A stretch of 64,000 nucleotides of DNA, from positions 4,972 to 68,971 of the forward strand of contig JAZRHM010000029.1 in the NCBI GenBank assembly GCA_045644765.1, written 5' to 3'. This document shows positions 14,298 through 64,000 of this stretch, piece by piece. Within the stretch, counting starts at the first letter, position 1. Every line of letters begins with the position of its first letter. Source of the DNA: Alphaproteobacteria bacterium. Lineage in GTDB: Bacteria > Pseudomonadota > Alphaproteobacteria > RF32 > CAG-239. The translations under genes were made by a program, and so were the position numbers. The notes under the pieces are model-generated. The model did no database searches, had not been told where the DNA came from, and saw only the letters and a list, made by a program, of their open reading frames with translations.

Positions 14298-15266
14298 TTA
14301 TTTATTGGATTTTTGAGAGCCGTACGCTTTATCGTATTCTCTTTTTAGGGTTTCGAATTCTACATTAGTATAACGCTGAGTAGTGTTTAAGGTTTCGTGT
14401 CCCAACAGCTCCTGAATTGAACGTAAGTCGGTGCCTTGAGCTAAAAGATGTGTTGCAAAAGAATGCCTAAGGGCGTGGGGCGTCACAGTATCAGGTAGGC
14501 CCAGCCGGTTCCTTATCTTTTGTAACTGCCTTTGTATGATACGAGGGCTCAATCTGTCACCTCTGGCTCCAATAAAAAGAGCTTCGTTAAGGGAAAAATT
14601 AGGTGAGACAGCTCTAATGTAAGCGTTTATATTTTCTTTGACTATGGGCAATAGGGGAACAAAGCGTTCCTTATTGCCTTTTCCTTTTATTTTGAGAAAA
14701 TTTTCAGCTGTGATGAAATCTTTATAATTTAGGGATAAAGCTTCCGAAATGCGAAGTCCGGCACCATAAAGAAGTGTAAAAACAGCCATATCTCGCAAAC
14801 CTTGCCAGTCGTTTGTGGCAATATTTTTTGCATCTTGAATTATACTAAGCGTGTCATCAACATCAATCGATTTTGGTAGGGTTTTATTGGGTTTAGGAGT
14901 TGAAATTATGCTTATGACACTGTTTTTTAGTATGTGCGCAATATCTAGCCATTTGAAAAAATTTTTAAATGCCGAAATTTCTCTGGCTAAGGAAGATTTT
15001 TCTATGTGCTTATTAGCTCTAGATGTTATAAAAGATCTAAAATCTCTAATATCAAGATTGGATAAAAATTCCAGATTAATAATTTTACCTTTGTCAGAAA
15101 AAAACTTAATAAATATGGCCAAATCTCTGGCATAAGCGCTGACCGTGTTTTCAGAATAGCGCCTTTCGTTTGTTAAATAGCCAATCCAAGAATGTATAAT
15201 ATTAATAACATCTTTTTCAGCTTTATAATCAATTTTGTTTTTCATAAAAAAATTATATGCCTGCAA
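14298..15266 (-). CDS. Tyrosine site-specific recombinase XerC/XerD family
   Basis: C-terminal HALRHSFATHLLAQGTDLRSIQELLGHETLNTTQRYT with catalytic Tyr. Confidence 0.85.
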   Translation of the reverse strand: MQAYNFFMKNKIDYKAEKDVINIIHSWIGYLTNERRYSENTVSAYARDLAIFIKFFSDKGKIINLEFLSNLDIRDFRSFITSRANKHIEKSSLAREISAFKNFFKWLDIAHILKNSVISIISTPKPNKTLPKSIDVDDTLSIIQDAKNIATNDWQGLRDMAVFTLLYGAGLRISEALSLNYKDFITAENFLKIKGKGNKERFVPLLPIVKENINAYIRAVSPNFSLNEALFIGARGDRLSPRIIQRQLQKIRNRLGLPDTVTPHALRHSFATHLLAQGTDLRSIQELLGHETLNTTQRYTNVEFETLKREYDKAYGSQKSNK

Positions 15267-55387: not shown

Positions 55388-56707
55388 TCATAAAGAATTA
55401 TTCGCTTCTCTGATAACAGGTTTAAAAAACTCTACCATGTAACTTAGAGCGTCAAATATGTGGCCTAAATATAATTTATCATTATCGTCTGATATTTGCG
55501 AAGGTGTTGCTTCATCAATGAGGGATGTTCCTTCTTTGAATTTTAAATTTTTCATATTGTAAATAAGCCATTTGCATTTCGGGTGAACTAAAATATTACG
55601 TTCGCCTGTGTCTGTATATACTTGTTTGTTAAAGGCGTTGATTCTGGCTAAAATTGGCGGATTAAACGAGCGTAAATTTAATCTGTAACGATATCCTGCT
55701 TTGGCTAATGTGTTAATGATAATTGCATAATCAGAATATCTTGATTGGGTTTTGCGATATTTGCCTGATGCATCGCCGCAAATCTGTATGGTGCCTTTAA
55801 ATTTTTCCGGAGGATAACGTCGAATAAATTCGTCGACAACATCTTGAGTTATTACGTTATTTAGAACAAGCTCGTCAAAAACAAAAAATTTTTTACCATC
55901 AAAGTGTGCCAGTGTTGACATGAAAGGATTGACGTTAAAATCTAAACTCCAATATATGTCTAAATCAGGTACATATCTGATTTGTTCGTTGATGTTGGCT
56001 GTCGACCAGTATTTAACAACTTTTACACTGTTTGCGTTTTTAGGTTTATTCAGATAATCTTGTTCGTATTCCTCCGGCTTGTTTTTTTTAATCAGTTCGG
56101 CATATTCAAGAAATTTATCAGACAGAATTCCGAGCTTTTCTATTTCCGGATAATTTACTTCAATAAAAAAAGTTTTTTGTGGCGCCTTCATATTTTCGTA
56201 ATCGAGGAATAGTGCACTTTCAACCGGTAATTCATCGCTTATGCGGTTGTAAATTACAATAAGTATAACGCCTTTTTTTCTGATGGTTTTGAGTAAAATT
56301 TGCCAAACGGCTCTGCTTATCATTTGCGCTTCGTCAATGATTAATATATCTATTTGAGCAAGCCCTTTTAGGTTTTCTCTTGCGTTTTGGTTTTTATCTT
56401 GTAAGCCCATAAAAAATAGTTCAGATTCTGTTTTGTTGTTCGTGATTCTGTTTTTTGTATATTCAAATCCTTTGTTTGTAAATTCGGTGTTGATTAATTC
56501 TTTGAATTCAATGTATAAACTTTCTTCTGTAGATATTTTTGTTTCTCTAAATACGGCTACTCTTTTTTTTGTTTTCATCATTTGGCATAAAATGGCTCGG
56601 CAGACGTGTCCGGTTTTTAAGGATCCTCTGCCTCCGGTTAATGCAAAAGTATCGTATTTGCCGTTATCCATTTGCAGAAGTGGTAAATATTTTTTATAAA
56701 ATATCAT
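55388..56707 (-). CDS. Phage terminase large subunit
   Basis: Walker A ALTGGRGSLKTGH, Walker B ILIIDEAQM, C-terminal nuclease-like region. Confidence 0.75.
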   Translation of the reverse strand: MIFYKKYLPLLQMDNGKYDTFALTGGRGSLKTGHVCRAILCQMMKTKKRVAVFRETKISTEESLYIEFKELINTEFTNKGFEYTKNRITNNKTESELFFMGLQDKNQNARENLKGLAQIDILIIDEAQMISRAVWQILLKTIRKKGVILIVIYNRISDELPVESALFLDYENMKAPQKTFFIEVNYPEIEKLGILSDKFLEYAELIKKNKPEEYEQDYLNKPKNANSVKVVKYWSTANINEQIRYVPDLDIYWSLDFNVNPFMSTLAHFDGKKFFVFDELVLNNVITQDVVDEFIRRYPPEKFKGTIQICGDASGKYRKTQSRYSDYAIIINTLAKAGYRYRLNLRSFNPPILARINAFNKQVYTDTGERNILVHPKCKWLIYNMKNLKFKEGTSLIDEATPSQISDDNDKLYLGHIFDALSYMVEFFKPVIREANNSL

Positions 56708-57111
56708 TTTTCCTCCTTGATTTTTTCTTGCTGTTTATCAAGTACATATTTCAAGATTTTATGTAATGAATGCGTGTATTTTGAGTATAATCTGCTTCGA
56801 GAATAACTAAATTTTGCAGTAAGTGTTTTCCATGAGTGGCCGGAATTTCTGACAAGAATTAAGTTGCGTTCGTCATAATCAACTTGTTTTAGCCAGTCTT
56901 CCAAAACTTCGTCCATATCATCTATTTCTTCAGGTAAAGGGGAAGTGTAAGATTTGCTTTTGTTAAGCATTATGGATTTAGTTTCTTCGTTTACATATGC
57001 TGGCCAATGAGATGAAATTTTTTTAGGACCGTCTGTTGGAAAAGTGCGTAAAATTCTTAAAGCTTTTTTTATTTCAAATTCTACGTCTTGTATATTTCTA
57101 ACTGGTTTCAT
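56704..57111 (-). CDS. Putative terminase small subunit / DNA-binding protein (4-nt overlap with terminase large gene)
   Basis: Position and C-terminal HTH-like SRSRLYSKYTHSL. Confidence 0.35.
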   Translation of the reverse strand: MKPVRNIQDVEFEIKKALRILRTFPTDGPKKISSHWPAYVNEETKSIMLNKSKSYTSPLPEEIDDMDEVLEDWLKQVDYDERNLILVRNSGHSWKTLTAKFSYSRSRLYSKYTHSLHKILKYVLDKQQEKIKEEK

Positions 57112-57247
57112 ATGATCTCCTTAATATATTAAAATTAATATCCAATATTTATATATTAATATTAATCAAGTCAAATATTAAAAATAATATTTGCACAATT
57201 ATTATGTTTAATATACATTGTATGCAATATCATATAAGGAGAAAGTT

Positions 57248-57952
57248 ATGGCAGATATTGAAGAAATCAGAAGAAAAGTAGATAAGCTTATAGCTGAAAA
57301 GGGTTTAAATTATCGTGATGCTTCGCTGAAAATAGGTAGAAAAGATTCGTATCTTCAGCAATATGTTAAATATGGATATCCTCGTCGCTTAAAAGAAATA
57401 GACCGTATGCGTTTAGCAAAACTTTTAGACGTTGATGATACGGAAATTATGGATGATGAGGTAATTGCATCAAAGACTATCGGATCAGCCAATGCAACTC
57501 TTAATGCAATATCAGATATCATTAAGGTTAGTTGTTCGTCAGAAGGTGATGTTATAGCAATTGATGTTTTGGCATCACAAATTGATGAAACTACAGATTT
57601 TTATAATAATGTTATAGGACGTCATCTTTTGAACAGAAATGTTTTGGAAGATTTTGGAACAAGTGATGTTAAAAATGTAAAAATCGTAAAAATATTAAAC
57701 GACGTTATGAAACCGACGATTAATTCCGGTGACAGTGTATGGTTTGATTGTTCTTATAAGCATCCGGAATCTGATGGCCTTTATCTGTTGCGTTCCGGAA
57801 GGGAGTTGTGTGTGAAACGCATTCAGACTTCTCCTATTGATGGTGTGGTCGAAATTGCTTCTGATAATGGACAATATAAGTCATATCAAGCAACTGACAG
57901 ACTATCGGTTAATGTTTTAGGTAAAGTCTTATTCGTTTTTCATAAACTTTAA
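57248..57952 (+). CDS. Phage CI/LexA-like repressor: N-terminal HTH + C-terminal S24 peptidase domain
   Basis: HTH (LNYRDASLKIGRKDSYLQQYV), S24 motifs (NSGDS Ser, CVKRI Lys); AAGGAG RBS. Confidence 0.7.
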   Translation: MADIEEIRRKVDKLIAEKGLNYRDASLKIGRKDSYLQQYVKYGYPRRLKEIDRMRLAKLLDVDDTEIMDDEVIASKTIGSANATLNAISDIIKVSCSSEGDVIAIDVLASQIDETTDFYNNVIGRHLLNRNVLEDFGTSDVKNVKIVKILNDVMKPTINSGDSVWFDCSYKHPESDGLYLLRSGRELCVKRIQTSPIDGVVEIASDNGQYKSYQATDRLSVNVLGKVLFVFHKL

Positions 57953-58460: not shown

Positions 58461-58536
<76 letters not shown>

Positions 58537-59443: not shown

Positions 59444-60982
59444 TTAATCTCTTGTTTTAAACTCACTATTAGTGTTTGTTGGTATATTTTTTTCTTTATT
59501 ATTATTTTGAGCAATTGCAGATTCTACAATTTTTCTGGTTTCCGGACTAACTTTTTCTAACATTGAAATATCAAAATTAAATCCGTCGATTTTCATGTTA
59601 AATTTCAGATTTGCAGAATAGAATCTTAATTTTGTATCCAAACTGACCGTATCGTTAAAACGAATATTTTTTTGACCTGTTTTTTTAGCGTTTGCAATTA
59701 TATCATCATAAAAAGTGTTTTCAGTTATATCTGTTTTTTTGGAAATAGTTATTTTATTTTTATTATGATAAGTTACTTTTTGCTTGAATTTATCTTCAAC
59801 AGTAAGTGAGCATTTATTTTTAGAAACATCATAGTGATAGGTTGATGCTCTATAAAAGTTTTCCAGTTTTCCAATCCAATTTGTATCTTGATTCAGTTTA
59901 TGTTTTAATTCCTGAATTTTATCTTGAGGATCTGTTATACCTTGCGTTTTAACAGGGGTATGATTCTTGTTATCAACACATTCATCAACTGTTAATATTG
60001 TTTTTTCAATGTCAGATGAATTATGCAAACCGGAATGTAAAATTTCTTCTGCCAACCCATCTTTAAGGCCACCAACAGTTGTTATAACGGGAGTAAAATT
60101 TAAGTTTGGGCAAAATCTTTTGTTATAAAGTTTCTTGAACACATTTGAGATAATATGACAATGACCGATGAAACCGTCGATTCTGTCTTTGCTAATGTCA
60201 TATTCTTGCATAATTTGATTTTTGTTTTCAGCATTGTTGGCAATGTCTTGTAATTTAAATTGCAGATTTTTAAGCGACATTTTCTGCTGTTTTGCCATGG
60301 TTACATAAGCATCAAATTTTTGAGTTTTATATTGATGAGAAATAACTTTTGAAACAGCAGTAGAGTTAACTACACAAATTAAAGGATCTTCAATGCTATG
60401 ATTTGCAGATGATATTTGTTTTATAAAGTCAGTTATTTTTTTATCGAAAATAGCTTTATCGTTGCCGTATTTTTTGGAACCTAGGGGTAAAGAAACCGTA
60501 CTGACAATTGACGGACCTTTTGATGTTAAATTAACCAGTGAGATTTCCGTGCTGCCACCTCCGCTTTCAACGTATAAAACATTTTTTGCAGATAACAGAA
60601 CGTCTTTGTTTTTATCCCTATGTGCAGGTATGCTTTTTAAACCGCCAATAACTGATAAATAGGCTTCTCTTTTTGGAGATATAACATGAATTTTTCGACC
60701 TAATTTTTCCAAAATTATTTTTTTGATAGCGTCTTGGTTAGATGTTTGACGAAACGCTTCTGTAGCACAAATATATAACTTGTCTTTACTAATGCCATAT
60801 TGTTCTGTTAAATCAGCAAACTCTGTTACCAATGAGACAACCTCGTTTTCATTAAGGTCGTTTGCCAAAGATTGTTTTAACATCTTATTTTTAGGAGTAA
60901 TATAGCGACTATTATTATATATTTTACATTTTACGGCATTGGTTCCTATATCAATAACCGCAAAATTATTATTTTTAGACAT
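59444..60982 (-). CDS. Ppx/GppA-family phosphatase with ~200-aa C-terminal extension
   Basis: N-terminal AVIDIGTNAVKCKIY actin-like ATPase motif typical of Ppx/GppA. Confidence 0.6.
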   Translation of the reverse strand: MSKNNNFAVIDIGTNAVKCKIYNNSRYITPKNKMLKQSLANDLNENEVVSLVTEFADLTEQYGISKDKLYICATEAFRQTSNQDAIKKIILEKLGRKIHVISPKREAYLSVIGGLKSIPAHRDKNKDVLLSAKNVLYVESGGGSTEISLVNLTSKGPSIVSTVSLPLGSKKYGNDKAIFDKKITDFIKQISSANHSIEDPLICVVNSTAVSKVISHQYKTQKFDAYVTMAKQQKMSLKNLQFKLQDIANNAENKNQIMQEYDISKDRIDGFIGHCHIISNVFKKLYNKRFCPNLNFTPVITTVGGLKDGLAEEILHSGLHNSSDIEKTILTVDECVDNKNHTPVKTQGITDPQDKIQELKHKLNQDTNWIGKLENFYRASTYHYDVSKNKCSLTVEDKFKQKVTYHNKNKITISKKTDITENTFYDDIIANAKKTGQKNIRFNDTVSLDTKLRFYSANLKFNMKIDGFNFDISMLEKVSPETRKIVESAIAQNNNKEKNIPTNTNSEFKTRD

Positions 60983-61151
60983 ATTACACTATCCTGTATT
61001 GTTCTTTTTAATAATATATTTATAGCAGAAACTGTTCAAATAATCAATACTAAATTATACGTGAATATAGCGTGAAAATTATATTTAATATGTTAAAAAT
61101 AACTCCCAAATTCAAATACAAAAAAGCCACCTTTATGGTGGCTTTTTTGTT

Positions 61152-61315
61152 TGGTCGGGACTATAGGATTGACTTCGTCGAAACTGCACGGTTGCTTCGC
61201 ATCGGCATACTTCCGTCTGCCTACCGTTTGTTTTCAAACCTACTTTTGTATGTTCGAACCCTTAAGCCCGCCTTACAAACAAAAAACCTCACCACAAGGG
61301 TGAGGTCTTTATGTT
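61152..61315. repeat. att-like repeat unit U1: begins with 19 nt identical to tRNA-Pro 3' end (tggtcgggactataggatt) and ends with hairpin terminator; near-identical to 63506-63669
   Basis: Direct sequence comparison. Confidence 0.8.
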
Positions 61316-61577
61316 TGGTCGGATTGACCCCTACTAAATTATAAAAAAATACCCCATTTTATATAACATGGTTTTTTTGTCCTTTTTTCAGAGTGTTATG
61401 AGAGAGTGGTCGAACTTTCTCATCCATACTGATGGGGTTGACTAAATTTACTGCCCACTTGTTTTGTAAAAAAATTTTGTTGTTTTTCAATGAAATACAC
61501 TGACCACTAGGTTGTAACTTGACTTTTTTATTTTTCCAAGCATTGGTGTAAAGCAGATTATTAAAAAAGGAGATGCA

Positions 61578-61649
61578 ATGTCAAAAGAAGCAGAAAAATT
61601 AATTAAAATTATCCTGCCTGATTTATTTAAGTATTTGTATATACAATAA
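61578..61649 (+). CDS. Small ORF (23 aa, MSKEAEKLIKIILPDLFKYLYIQ) with AAGGAG RBS, 56 nt upstream of radical-SAM gene
   Basis: Manual translation; speculative. Confidence 0.25.
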   Translation: MSKEAEKLIKIILPDLFKYLYIQ

Positions 61650-61705
61650 AAAAGTATTGAAATTAGATAAAAATAGGTGTATAGTCCTAGTAAGGAGGTA
61701 AAAAT

Positions 61706-62713
61706 ATGACAAAATATGTTTCGTGGATTACGATTAACAGAGCATGTAATTTGCGTTGCAAATGGTGTTATGCTCAATCATCCAAATTTTCCAAACAAGA
61801 CGATATGACTATGGAATGTTTTTTAAAAATTATGAAGGTTATATCTGCTCCTATGGATGTGAAGAAGATTGTTTTTATTGGTGGAGAACCTACAATTCAC
61901 CCAAATTTTATAGAAATGCTTTCTCTTGCTAAAAAAACGATAGAAAAGGTTTCTCTTATAACGAATGGTATTAAATTTAAAGATATTGATTTTACTAAAG
62001 AAGTTAAAAAAGAAGGTTTGACTTGGGTAACTTTGTCATTAAAGGCGCCTAATGACCAGTTGTATAAAGATTGGACCGGTGTTTCAGCCATGTCTGCGGT
62101 CATTCAAGCAATCGCTAATTTAAAAAAAGAAAATATTGGTTTAAGTGTTTCTTTGGTTTTAAGTTCAGAGTTATATCGTTATATTGATGAATTGGCATAT
62201 ATTTTGCATGATTTAAAAATTGATAAGGTCTATATTGATAGTGAGCGACCTGTTTTAATAGGAGATCAGACTGTTTATAAACAAAGTATTAAAGATATTA
62301 CATCTGGTTACCATAAAACGGTAGATGCATTGGAAAAATATAATATTCCTTATATTTTTAAAGCATCCCTACCATTTTGTTTAATCCCTGAAGATTTTGT
62401 GAATAGAATGCGGAAAGATGGTCGGTTGCAGGCAGGTTGCCAAATACTAGCCGGAAATGGATTAATTTTTAATACAAATGGTGATTTACTTGCATGTAAT
62501 CAAATTTGCCAAGATCCATTGGCTCAATTTGATAAGGATTTTAATTCTGCAGAGTCATTGAAATCATTATTGAAATCAGATAATATTGTTAATTTTTATA
62601 AGATGATTGCTTCTTATCCACATGAAAAATGTTCTGGATGTAAGGATTGGAAATATTGTGGTGGTGGATGTCGTGTCAATTGGTTATATAAAAATATGTT
62701 AGATAATGTATAA
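61706..62713 (+). CDS. Radical SAM / SPASM-domain peptide-modifying enzyme
   Basis: CNLRCKWCY (CX3CX2C) at N-terminus, GGEPT, C-terminal CSGCKDWKYCGGGCR SPASM cluster. Confidence 0.8.
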   Translation: MTKYVSWITINRACNLRCKWCYAQSSKFSKQDDMTMECFLKIMKVISAPMDVKKIVFIGGEPTIHPNFIEMLSLAKKTIEKVSLITNGIKFKDIDFTKEVKKEGLTWVTLSLKAPNDQLYKDWTGVSAMSAVIQAIANLKKENIGLSVSLVLSSELYRYIDELAYILHDLKIDKVYIDSERPVLIGDQTVYKQSIKDITSGYHKTVDALEKYNIPYIFKASLPFCLIPEDFVNRMRKDGRLQAGCQILAGNGLIFNTNGDLLACNQICQDPLAQFDKDFNSAESLKSLLKSDNIVNFYKMIASYPHEKCSGCKDWKYCGGGCRVNWLYKNMLDNV

Positions 62714-62856
62714 TATGGATATGGGGCGATCATTGAATGATGGTGAAAAAATTGTTAAATTAAATGCTATAGCGATCATAAATAGATAGTTTATTCCTAT
62801 TGTTATAGTGTTTGTATAACGGATTTCTAGTTATTTTTGTGAAAGGAGGTGATATT

Positions 62857-63021
62857 ATGAGTGCACAAGAATTGTTTAGATTAATGTACAAAGGTCAATC
62901 ATTGAATACTGATGAAAGAATTGTTGGTTTAAATGCTAAATTTAATATCAGTGATGAACAGTGTGGTAATGACTGTGACTGTGGAGACAGTGAATGTAAT
63001 GAATGTAGTGACTGTGGATAA
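62857..63021 (+). CDS. Cys/Asp-rich precursor-like peptide (54 aa; MSAQELFRLMYKGQSLNTDERIVGLNAKFNISDEQCGNDCDCGDSECNECSDCG)
   Basis: GGAGG RBS 6 nt upstream; 8 Cys in last 19 residues; followed by strong terminator. Confidence 0.6.
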   Translation: MSAQELFRLMYKGQSLNTDERIVGLNAKFNISDEQCGNDCDCGDSECNECSDCG

Positions 63022-63030
63022 TTAATACAA

Positions 63031-63066
63031 ATAAAGCGCTGATTTTATCAGCGCTTTATTTTTTTA
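63031..63066 (+). terminator. Terminator after precursor peptide (aaagcgctgattttatcagcgcttt + T-run)
   Basis: Read directly. Confidence 0.7.
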
Positions 63067-63326
63067 TGCTCACGAATGTAACGCTGTTCAGTTAAATCAA
63101 AAAAAGACCACAATAGAAGTAGCTTGGATTTGTGAAATGGCTTGCGCACATTTCATTCCACACTGTTGTTCGGGACCGCCTGGCGGCGTCAGGTTGAATC
63201 TGACGGCATAAAGCCACCATCTTCAACTTCGAACCCAACGCCCACTCTTGCTCGTGACCTGTGGACATCAAATTTCGCTACCCGCTAGCCATAAAAAAAA
63301 CCGCCAAATGGCGGTCCTTTTATGGC

Positions 63327-63505
63327 TGGTCGGATTGACTAGATTATTTCGCTTCGCTACATGCTCGGCGCTCATCGGCTTTGCCGACCGGCACACCCCC
63401 GTGAGCCTTTCGCTTGAAGTGCAAACTAGCTTTCTCGCTAGTTCGAACCTAGATCCGAAAATCAAATAACAAAAAACCTCACCACAAGGGTGAGGTCTTT
63501 ATGTT
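63327..63505. repeat. att-like unit X: TGGTCGG core + GC-rich diverged homolog of U unit, ends with same cctcaccacaagggtgagg hairpin
   Basis: Direct comparison with U1/U2. Confidence 0.6.
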
Positions 63506-63669
63506 TGGTCGGGACTATAGGATTGACTTCGTCGAAACTGCACGGTTGCTTCGCATCGGCATACTTCCGTCTGCCTACCGTTTGTTTTCAAACCTACTTT
63601 TGTATGTTTGAACCCTTAAGCCCGCCTTACAAACAAAAAACCTCACCACAAGGGTGAGGTCTTTATGTT
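63506..63669. repeat. att-like repeat unit U2 (164 bp, 1 mismatch vs U1), abutting tRNA-Pro
   Basis: Direct comparison. Confidence 0.8.
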
Positions 63670-63746
63670 TGGTCGGGACTATAGGATTCGAACCTACGAC
63701 ATCTTGCTCCCAAAGCAAGCGCTCTACCAGGCTGAGCTAAGTCCCG
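63670..63746 (-). tRNA. tRNA-Pro (TGG), CCA encoded
   Basis: Manual cloverleaf of reverse complement: acceptor CGGGACT/AGTCCCG, anticodon loop TTTGGGA, T-loop TTCGAAT. Confidence 0.85.
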
Positions 63747-63784
63747 AAGACAAGACACATACATAAACTATAATTTTTACAAAA

Positions 63785-63979
63785 TCAAGTACTTTTTATT
63801 AAATGTTGAAATTTTCCCAAACTTTCTTCACTTATTCTTATTTTGAAGTGAATATAATCATCTATATTTGCACTTTCCAACACCTGTGAATTGGCGTGAA
63901 TCCAAGCAATTAACTTACCATTTTTAACATCAATATCAGTTTCAAAAGTATTAAATTCTGCAGATAACCTATCATTCAC
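63785..63979 (-). CDS. Hypothetical small protein (64 aa)
   Basis: ORF track only. Confidence 0.25.
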   Translation of the reverse strand: MNDRLSAEFNTFETDIDVKNGKLIAWIHANSQVLESANIDDYIHFKIRISEESLGKFQHLIKST

Positions 63980-64000
63980 TAATTGTAAAAACTTATCTAT

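Follow-up and report, generated by a model that had tools for sequence, protein, structure and literature searches.

Organization of the tRNA-Pro locus

The locus described here lies in a 64,000-nt stretch of contig JAZRHM010000029.1 (positions 4,972 to 68,971, forward strand; GenBank assembly GCA_045644765.1, Alphaproteobacteria, RF32, CAG-239), hereafter called the window, and comprises a tRNA-Pro(TGG) gene, an array of structured repeat units behind it, and a radical SAM (rSAM)/peptide gene cassette lying within that array. The tRNA gene is located on the minus strand at 63670-63746 (ARAGORN; Rfam tRNA, 69.3 bits). Its last 19 nt, which read TGGTCGGGACTATAGGATT on the plus strand, occur exactly at 61152, 63506 and 63670 (0.00 expected by chance); the recurrence at 61152 and 63506 had been noticed in the original prediction, which was made from the sequence alone. 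The two near-identical repeats that it described there, U1 (61144-61322) and U2 (63498-63676), were found to align over 179 nt at 99% identity with a single internal difference, C at 61257 versus T at 63611, which on the tRNA strand changes a hairpin A-U pair to G-U. Its shorter cores proved to be exact copies of TGGTCGGATTGAC at 61316 and 63327, and its common hairpin terminator, CCTCACCACAAGGGTGAGG, is present three times, at 61287, 63477 and 63641 (0.01 expected by chance). All of these recurrences lie far above chance.

The T-runs of the array hairpins lie on the minus strand, so the hairpins are terminators for the direction of the tRNA and the whole array is to be read that way. On the tRNA strand the order is tRNA-Pro, t1, X, t1, Y, t2, Z and a bidirectional terminator, followed by the peptide and rSAM genes (antisense), arm W, t1, X, t3 and a Ppx-like gene; t1, t2 and t3 denote intrinsic terminators, X, Y and Z denote repeat units, and the two copies of X are U1 and U2 (Table 1). 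The G+C content of X, Y and Z is 45-59% in a window of 34%. The tRNA end and the adjoining terminator form a block of 57 identical nt that recurs with every unit, and the array repeats at intervals of 164 bp (63670 to 63506) and 179 bp (63506 to 63327). The heptamer CCGACCA is common to the 19-nt repeat and to a 13-nt repeat, GTCAATCCGACCA, and is found at all five junctions.

Table 1. Features of the tRNA-Pro array and its cargo, in window coordinates. R1 is a covariance model (CM) built from the alphaproteobacterial units alone; ORF, open reading frame.
Feature	Position	Strand	Evidence
tRNA-Pro(TGG), CCA encoded, array head	63670..63746	-	ARAGORN; Rfam tRNA 69.3 bits
Terminator t1 copy a, immediately 3' of tRNA CCA	63636..63664	-	Minus-strand T-run
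Unit X copy U2, RtT-like foldback	63506..63629	-	CM R1 93.8 bits; nhmmer; fold; arm duplex -24.9 kcal/mol
Terminator t1 copy b	63472..63500	-	Hairpin and T-run
Unit Y, RtT-like, GATGAGCGCC subtype	63327..63464	-	CM R1 116 bits; alignment; own-arm duplex best
Terminator t2, ACCGCC-ATTT-GGCGGT and T-run	63293..63322	-	Sequence reading; hairpin list
Block Z, GC-rich, tentative degenerate third unit	63095..63292	-	Fold; own-arm duplex -22.4 kcal/mol
Bidirectional terminator closing peptide gene	63029..63061	.	Inverted repeat; hairpin list
Cys-rich precursor peptide, 54 aa	62857..63021	+	ORF; relatives have a 51-65-aa ORF after the rSAM gene
Truncated precursor-leader duplicate (MDMGRSLNDGEKIVKLNAIAIINR) right after rSAM gene	62715..62789	+	76% DNA identity to precursor start
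Radical SAM/SPASM-type peptide maturase	61706..62713	+	PF04055, PF13353
Arm W, ~230-nt conserved cargo end module	61329..61560	-	Homologous to L023 2215-2506
13-nt core GTCAATCCGACCA, copy 1	61316..61328	-	Exact match to 63327-63339
Terminator t1 copy c	61282..61310	-	Hairpin and T-run
Unit X copy U1	61152..61275	-	CM R1 92.9 bits; 99% identical to U2
Terminator t3, distal array end ahead of Ppx/GppA-like gene	61118..61150	-	Inverted repeat; hairpin list

Structure and covariation of the repeat units

Read on the tRNA strand, each U copy contains a structured unit of ~125-140 nt composed, in order, of a 5' arm, a short GA-rich loop, the start of a T-stem/loop (GTAGGTTCGA), a core, the tRNA end and an intrinsic terminator. 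The 5' arm, which matches the reverse complement of tRNA positions ~49-76 imperfectly, pairs with a tRNA-identical 3' block, the tRNA's own last 13-19 nt including CCA, enclosing the conserved core of 60-100 nt with its two or three hairpins. Units X and Y are mutually alignable, GTAGGTTTGA in X and GCTAGTTTGCA in Y being the counterparts of the family consensus GTAGGTTCGA. In X the 5' arm is GGCGGGCTTAAGGGTTCAAACATAC and the 3' block, AATCCTATAGTCCCGACCA, is identical to the tRNA-Pro end at 19/19 positions in both copies; in Y the 3' block is shortened to the 13-nt GTCAATCCGACCA and the 5' arm co-varies with it. In the predicted fold the unit ends are paired into an acceptor/T-stem-like helix with the NCCA tail left free.

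Analysis of ten diverse units with RNAalifold gave 28 consensus pairs. Cells of these pairs were 94% paired, compared to 28-41% with the partners slid, and 12 pairs were changed on both sides, compared to 4.9±1.5 in column shuffles (0 of 500 shuffles reached 12). The wobbles were asymmetric, with 23 G-U against 3 A-C pairs, and this excess identifies the tRNA-sense strand as the one that folds. Loops were mainly GNRA or GNA. Cognate arm duplexes were 18-25 bp in length and the best partner of each 5' arm was the 3' arm of its own unit (-22 to -31 kcal/mol); this held also for Y and for a tRNA-Arg unit described below, whose arms differ from the Pro type. The U units are a conserved structured family and not passive attachment (att) scars. 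The original prediction had read them as the traces of repeated integrase-mediated insertion into the tRNA 3' end; an array of tRNA 3'-end repeats with foreign cargo does exist, but its U units are structured, carry covarying pairs and resemble the RtT repeats of Escherichia coli.

Block Z has a 5' arm, TGGCTAGCGGGTAGCGAAATTTGA, that forms a closing stem with CAAATCCAAGCTAC, and lacks both CCA and a terminator. It had no homologue among the fetched loci and was not matched by model R1. On the basis of its modeled fold, Z may tentatively be taken as a third, degenerate foldback unit.

Related loci in metagenome contigs

Metagenome contigs were scanned with the tRNA-Pro 19-mer, yielding 22 contigs of AT-rich gut-type alphaproteobacteria, six of which carry two copies, spaced by 173-214 nt or, where cargo lies between them, by 1885 nt. 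Units lie 3' of tRNA-Pro and its terminator in contigs L021/33/40, L032/36 and L027, and those of L023, L025, L037 and L039 are distant from any tRNA-Pro. In L032/L036, two tandem units with a period of 174 are found behind tRNA-Arg(TCT); both arms of these units match tRNA-Arg, around a core that they share with the Pro units. The units are therefore modular, with tRNA-specific arms around a conserved core. They are also not scattered, and scattered copies were what the original prediction had named as its refutation: hidden Markov model (HMM) and CM searches of the window and ~250 kb of related contigs located units only behind tRNA-Pro and tRNA-Arg genes, and the three model-detected copies in the window are all at the tRNA-Pro locus. 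No equivalent tRNA-Pro/Arg element was found in the literature.

Comparison of the tRNA-Pro locus among relatives, which the original prediction had proposed as a check, returned units behind tRNA-Pro and cargo that varies between contigs. The same-species contigs L029 and L035 have 0.3 kb of variable DNA in one and 5.6 kb in the other behind the same tRNA-Pro, the longer stretch encoding, by eye, a Dam-like methylase, a DGQHR-domain protein and a vWA protein, and comparing the two for an island att repeat gave no clean flanking repeat. The same-species contigs L016/L017 stop 33 nt short of the array. The synteny of the Ppx-like neighbor gene differs in other genomes.

A longer unit of ~180 nt and unrelated sequence is present behind tRNA-Pro at L026 8612-8791 and L038 102-283 (R1 19-22 bits, a weak match). 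In this longer unit the 5' arm corresponds to the reverse complement of another tRNA-like end (GGTTCGAATCCTCACTCCCTCCA), which suggests that arms of different tRNAs can be combined. Relative to L027, the unit at 1286-1415 of L030 contains an ~87-nt AT-rich palindromic insertion (CTTAGTTTTGCATTAAATAACATTTATTGCAAAACTTAG...) directly after GTAGGTTCGAAA, and this insertion looks like a tiny mobile hairpin element.

Comparison with E. coli RtT

The tyrT region of E. coli is reportedly the site of a "178-bp sequence repeated 3.14 times" (an observation said to go back to Egan & Landy, 1978, and Rossi et al., 1981), and an rtT RNA is said to have been described by Boesl & Kersten in 1991. In the tyrT-tyrV region of strain K-12 we found four RtT units (RF00391, 133-137 bits) with a period of 178 bp, each closed by the last 19 nt of tRNA-Tyr. 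In an RtT unit, GGGGAAGGAT, the complement of the tRNA-Tyr end, is followed by GAGAACCTTCGAC-loop-AAGGTTCGA, a core (…CGAGCGAAAGCGAGAGAACG, hairpin, AGCGAAGCGA…GAGT) and AATCCTTCCCCCACCACCA, which is the tRNA-Tyr last 19 nt. The order of these parts is identical to that in the alphaproteobacterial units, and the closing helix is also present in the Rfam RtT consensus.

Both arrays lie directly behind a tRNA gene on the same strand, with serial units of 164-179 bp here and 178 bp in E. coli, and in both the unit closes with the last 19 nt of its tRNA, CCA included. Both have a 5' arm complementary to the end block, a hairpin made of the T-arm reverse complement and NNGGTTCGA, a core inserted exactly after GGTTCGA, and a strain-variable copy number. 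The cognate tRNA differs, being Tyr in Enterobacterales and Pro, or Arg in relatives, in the AT-rich gut-type alphaproteobacterial hosts. Consecutive units are here separated by a strong intrinsic terminator, which E. coli lacks between its units, and the array is heterogeneous (subtypes X, Y and Z) and interrupted by a 2-kb gene cassette.

Model R1 matched E. coli RtT at 27.9 bits (rough E ~5e-7) and 12.2 bits, with no match to the E. coli tRNA-Tyr genes. A blastn search of 345 kb of fetched sequence with rtT2 returned the L025 unit as the best match, in register but at a marginal E of 0.013 (67% over 96 nt), and the motifs AGCGAAAGCGAGA and CAGCGCnGAGTAATCC are common to E. coli RtT and L025. 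We call the units RtT-like in the sense that they share the same design and are probably remote homologues of RtT.

Among 5426 complete E. coli genomes, 4700 carry RtT annotations, at 1-9 places each; the number per E. coli genome thus ranges from 0 to 9, and the annotation is absent from phages. RtT has been seen as RNA in Klebsiella RNA-seq (PMC4147364) and its structure has covariation support (PMC7657543); according to a preprint, the RNA arises by processing of the tyrT transcript and has a link with the stringent response through an unknown mode of action (10.1101/2024.07.17.603846). In E. coli SK1144 (L062) the two tRNA-Tyr genes are separated by 33 nt that hold no RtT unit, and desaturase genes follow in the place of three RtT units of K-12 (L064). 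The RtT locus of E. coli is likewise variable.

The cargo cassette

The segment from 61329 to 63326 is bounded by a direct repeat of GTCAATCCGACCA (61316-61328 and 63327-63339), the second copy of which is the 3' end of unit Y, and contains block Z, the precursor peptide gene, a truncated leader duplicate, the maturase gene, a 23-aa ORF and arm W. The original prediction had named the cargo as the rSAM/peptide pair plus a GC-rich block; the pair is indeed bounded by the 13-nt repeat, whereas the GC-rich block does not count as cargo and is made up of unit Y and the apparently degenerate Z. The precursor matched no Pfam or NCBIfam family, and the truncated leader duplicate lacks the Cys-rich core. 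The maturase has full-length similarity to PapB/GeoRSP/StsB maturases, in each case under the NCBIfam cut-off. A 23-aa ORF (MSKEAEKLIKIILPDLFKYLYIQ, 61578-61649) with a good ribosome-binding site is located upstream of the rSAM gene and may be a second small peptide of the cluster.

Arm W contains the motifs GTGGGCAGTA, GTCAACCCCA and ...GGGGTCAAT. Its homologue in L023 likewise closes with GGGGGTCAATCCGACCA, followed by a terminator and then a unit, and adjoins different cargo, a putative CAT-like acetyltransferase and a P-loop kinase (named from sequence alone). In other contigs, APH, GNAT, acyltransferase and PEGA-lipoprotein genes, identified by scanning, lie beside or between units. Homologues of the rSAM gene in L010-L015 have neither units nor a tRNA-Pro nearby; the cassette is therefore not bound to the units.

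Scanning of the ORFs of 120 aa or more from 37.7 to 64 kb revealed no integrase, nor was one seen among the checked ORFs of the related loci. The earlier statement that no integrase remains in the window holds for this neighborhood but not for the window as a whole, which encodes, 46 kb away at 14298-15266, a XerC-like tyrosine recombinase whose NCBIfam XerC score of 310 bits falls slightly short of the cut-off and which is the only recombinase among the window ORFs scanned. The cargo looks like an integrase-less cassette inserted at the tRNA-like end of a unit. Its integration is plausible because it has a 13-nt boundary repeat and an arm shared with different cargo, and the arrangement suggests site-specific insertion by a recombinase encoded elsewhere. 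The U1/U2 pair may have arisen by successive insertions at CCGACCA or by one Campbell-type recombination through a resident X. Between two units of L023 (oriented, 2840-3136), an ORF adjoining an APH-type kinase gene reads like a small serine recombinase reduced to its C-terminal helix-turn-helix part, and could be what is left of the recombinase that moved that cassette.

Interpretation of the array

We read the island as an RtT-like tRNA-operon repeat array behind tRNA-Pro in which a cassette has landed, a reading to which we assign a probability of about 0.55. The array would then have the order tRNA, X, Y, Z (degenerate), rSAM/peptide cassette with arm W, and X. By analogy with E. coli rtT RNA, transcription from the tRNA promoter would read through into the units, and the enzymes that process tRNAs would cut them out as stable small RNAs; such excision would follow from the presentation of an acceptor/T-stem-like helix with NCCA. 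Because the tRNA end and terminator are repeated as 57 identical nt, recombination could expand or shrink the array or loop out the 2.35-kb U1-U2 segment. The tRNA-like 3' blocks would also provide extra landing sites for elements that target tRNA 3' ends, and the ~2-kb rSAM/peptide cassette would occupy one of these, the 3' end of unit Y.

Several results weigh against this reading. The Rfam RtT model, which has a gathering threshold of 45 bits, had no match at E≤10 on window positions 60900 to 64000 and none at E≤0.5 on eight related loci, and sequence-only HMMs gave no cross-detection with E. coli RtT; as the kinship is argued from architecture, one CM match and a marginal BLAST match, the resemblance may be convergent. 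A strong intrinsic terminator stands ahead of every unit, and the array was found to contain no promoter-like site. No recombinase is linked to the rSAM/peptide cassette. Units in L027, L030, L022 and L037 are truncated or interrupted and may be decaying, and the L025 unit has the arms of a tRNA-Pro other than the resident one, which fits carriage by mobile DNA better than a host RNA gene. The terminators ahead of the units, the decayed units and the foreign arms in L025 keep alive two other explanations, a miniature mobile element and a folded single-stranded DNA (ssDNA) site.

Under the first of these, a terminator and unit together form a miniature integrase-less element of the cis-mobilizable element (CIME) type, essentially a cargo-free attP, that would have inserted at the CCGACCA core of the tRNA 3' end; X, the cassette, Y and X would have accreted successively, moved by an integrase acting in trans from another part of the genome. 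CCGACCA is present at each of the five junctions, three of which continue into the same AACATAAAG-terminator; four insertions next to the tRNA could yield the observed order; and the L025 unit, with its foreign arms, lies behind a tRNA-Pro with which it shares only CCCGACCA. The cargo differs among contigs, and direct-repeat arms like the arm-type sites of integrases are seen in W, L023 and L020. Tandem accretion at tRNA and tmRNA gene ends is documented elsewhere (PMC5704250; PMC3146451, on the ssrA islands of Dehalococcoides), and the array has in common with it serial direct repeats of an RNA-gene 3' end, integrase-less segments between them and accessory cargo that varies from genome to genome. 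What repeats here is more than a core: it is a conserved structured element that also contains the tRNA end in inverted form, and compensatory changes, GNRA/GNA loops and strand-specific G-U pairs are unexpected of double-stranded att arms. No integrase was found in or near the ~15 unit-bearing loci, nor in the scanned window ORFs apart from the XerC-like gene; no unit copy was found on viral contigs; and the tyrT operon of E. coli, which has the same design, is known to yield an RNA product. We regard serial integration as possible but rather unlikely.

If the units instead acted as folded ssDNA recombination sites, in the manner of integron attC sites or the CTX phage attP(+) hairpin, the foldback would recreate the tRNA 3' duplex for a recombinase and the array would be a gene-capture platform. 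The units share with those sites a length of ~130 nt, imperfect inverted repeats in which pairing is kept over sequence, and a position between accessory cassettes, here with no adjacent integrase; the inverted copy of the target, the match of the arms to the adjoining tRNA and the stable GCGAAGC/GNA mini-hairpins would also be accounted for. No IntI-type gene was found, however, and the junctions read CCGACCA, with neither GTTRRRY nor a dif-like core. Unlike integron cassettes, the cargo genes have their own promoters and stand in either orientation. It is the transcribed tRNA strand that folds, the GNRA loops are of a kind typical of RNA, and the E. coli relative is an RNA; we consider this explanation improbable. 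Still less probable, to the point that we give it very little credence, is a core that is a non-autonomous transposon, either a miniature inverted-repeat transposable element (MITE) or an IS200/IS605-type palindrome, inserted at TTCGA|ATCC of leftover tRNA 3' fragments. GGTTCGA and (A)ATCC do directly flank the core of the Pro, Arg and Tyr versions, hairpins lie close to both of its ends, and truncated units break immediately after GTAGGTTCGAC. A core-only HMM nevertheless found no free-standing copies, that is, none beyond the tRNA-linked units in the window or ~345 kb of loci, which speaks against a generic MITE; no HUH or TnpB gene is nearby, and the 5' inverted arm is left unexplained.

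On the preferred reading, an RtT-like array with a landed cassette, the locus is not categorically new and is best filed as RtT-like repeats re-targeted to tRNA-Pro/tRNA-Arg in Alphaproteobacteria and carrying a captured rSAM/peptide cassette. RtT as curated is enterobacterial and confined to tRNA-Tyr, and the same design is now seen behind tRNA-Pro and tRNA-Arg in another class, which raises the comparative question of what needs a helix that copies the acceptor/T-stem and CCA end of a specific tRNA. Such arrays gather accessory cassettes, an rSAM peptide cluster here and resistance-type enzymes elsewhere, and so bear on the annotation of "islands" at tRNA genes. A broader proposal, which we hold to be doubtful, is that RtT-like units are widespread, re-programmable tRNA-3'-end mimics that capture integrase-less cassettes as landing pads or cofactors. 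If it were true, the arms would be rewritten according to the neighboring tRNA (Tyr, Pro, Arg and others), the units would constitute a gene-capture platform distinct from integrons, and a 45-year-old repeat would gain a function; RtT repeats have been known since the late 1970s and, to our knowledge, have no accepted function.

Rejected identities

Other identities for the units were tried and rejected. Rfam searches of the window and eight related loci returned only tRNAs at both gathering and permissive thresholds, and no tmRNA, permuted forms included, was found by ARAGORN or Rfam. Some units contain CUGAUGAG...GAAAC...GUC, reminiscent of a hammerhead ribozyme, but C3/U4 are not conserved and are part of a hairpin stem. 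The domains of a group IIC intron, which could follow a terminator, were not found, and protein-coding potential in the units was limited to short unsupported ORFs. A mobile-element guide RNA (IS110 bridge RNA or TnpB/IscB omega RNA) was rejected on the grounds that no such ORF flanks any unit and no Rfam match was obtained. The GC-rich block had no BLAST match to plasmids or phages. Searches of viral contigs with four patterns gave nothing or chance matches, and for the two unit/arm seed patterns the CM recognized no unit among the matches.

Other features of the window

A GC-rich (~50%) region at 7500-7690 contains several hairpins and is located immediately upstream of the ORF that starts at 7687, ~150 nt from a tRNA-Thr gene. 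It matched no Rfam family at the gathering threshold and could be an unrecognized leader or small RNA. No RtT-like unit was found behind tRNA-Phe (58461-58536), next to which (55388-57952) is a remnant resembling a phage or gene transfer agent, with genes for a terminase large subunit, a DUF6362 protein and an S24-peptidase (LexA/cI-like) repressor. The ORFs at 204-1067 and 1833-2696, both of 287 aa, are 1.6 kb apart and match no Pfam family; they may be paralogues.

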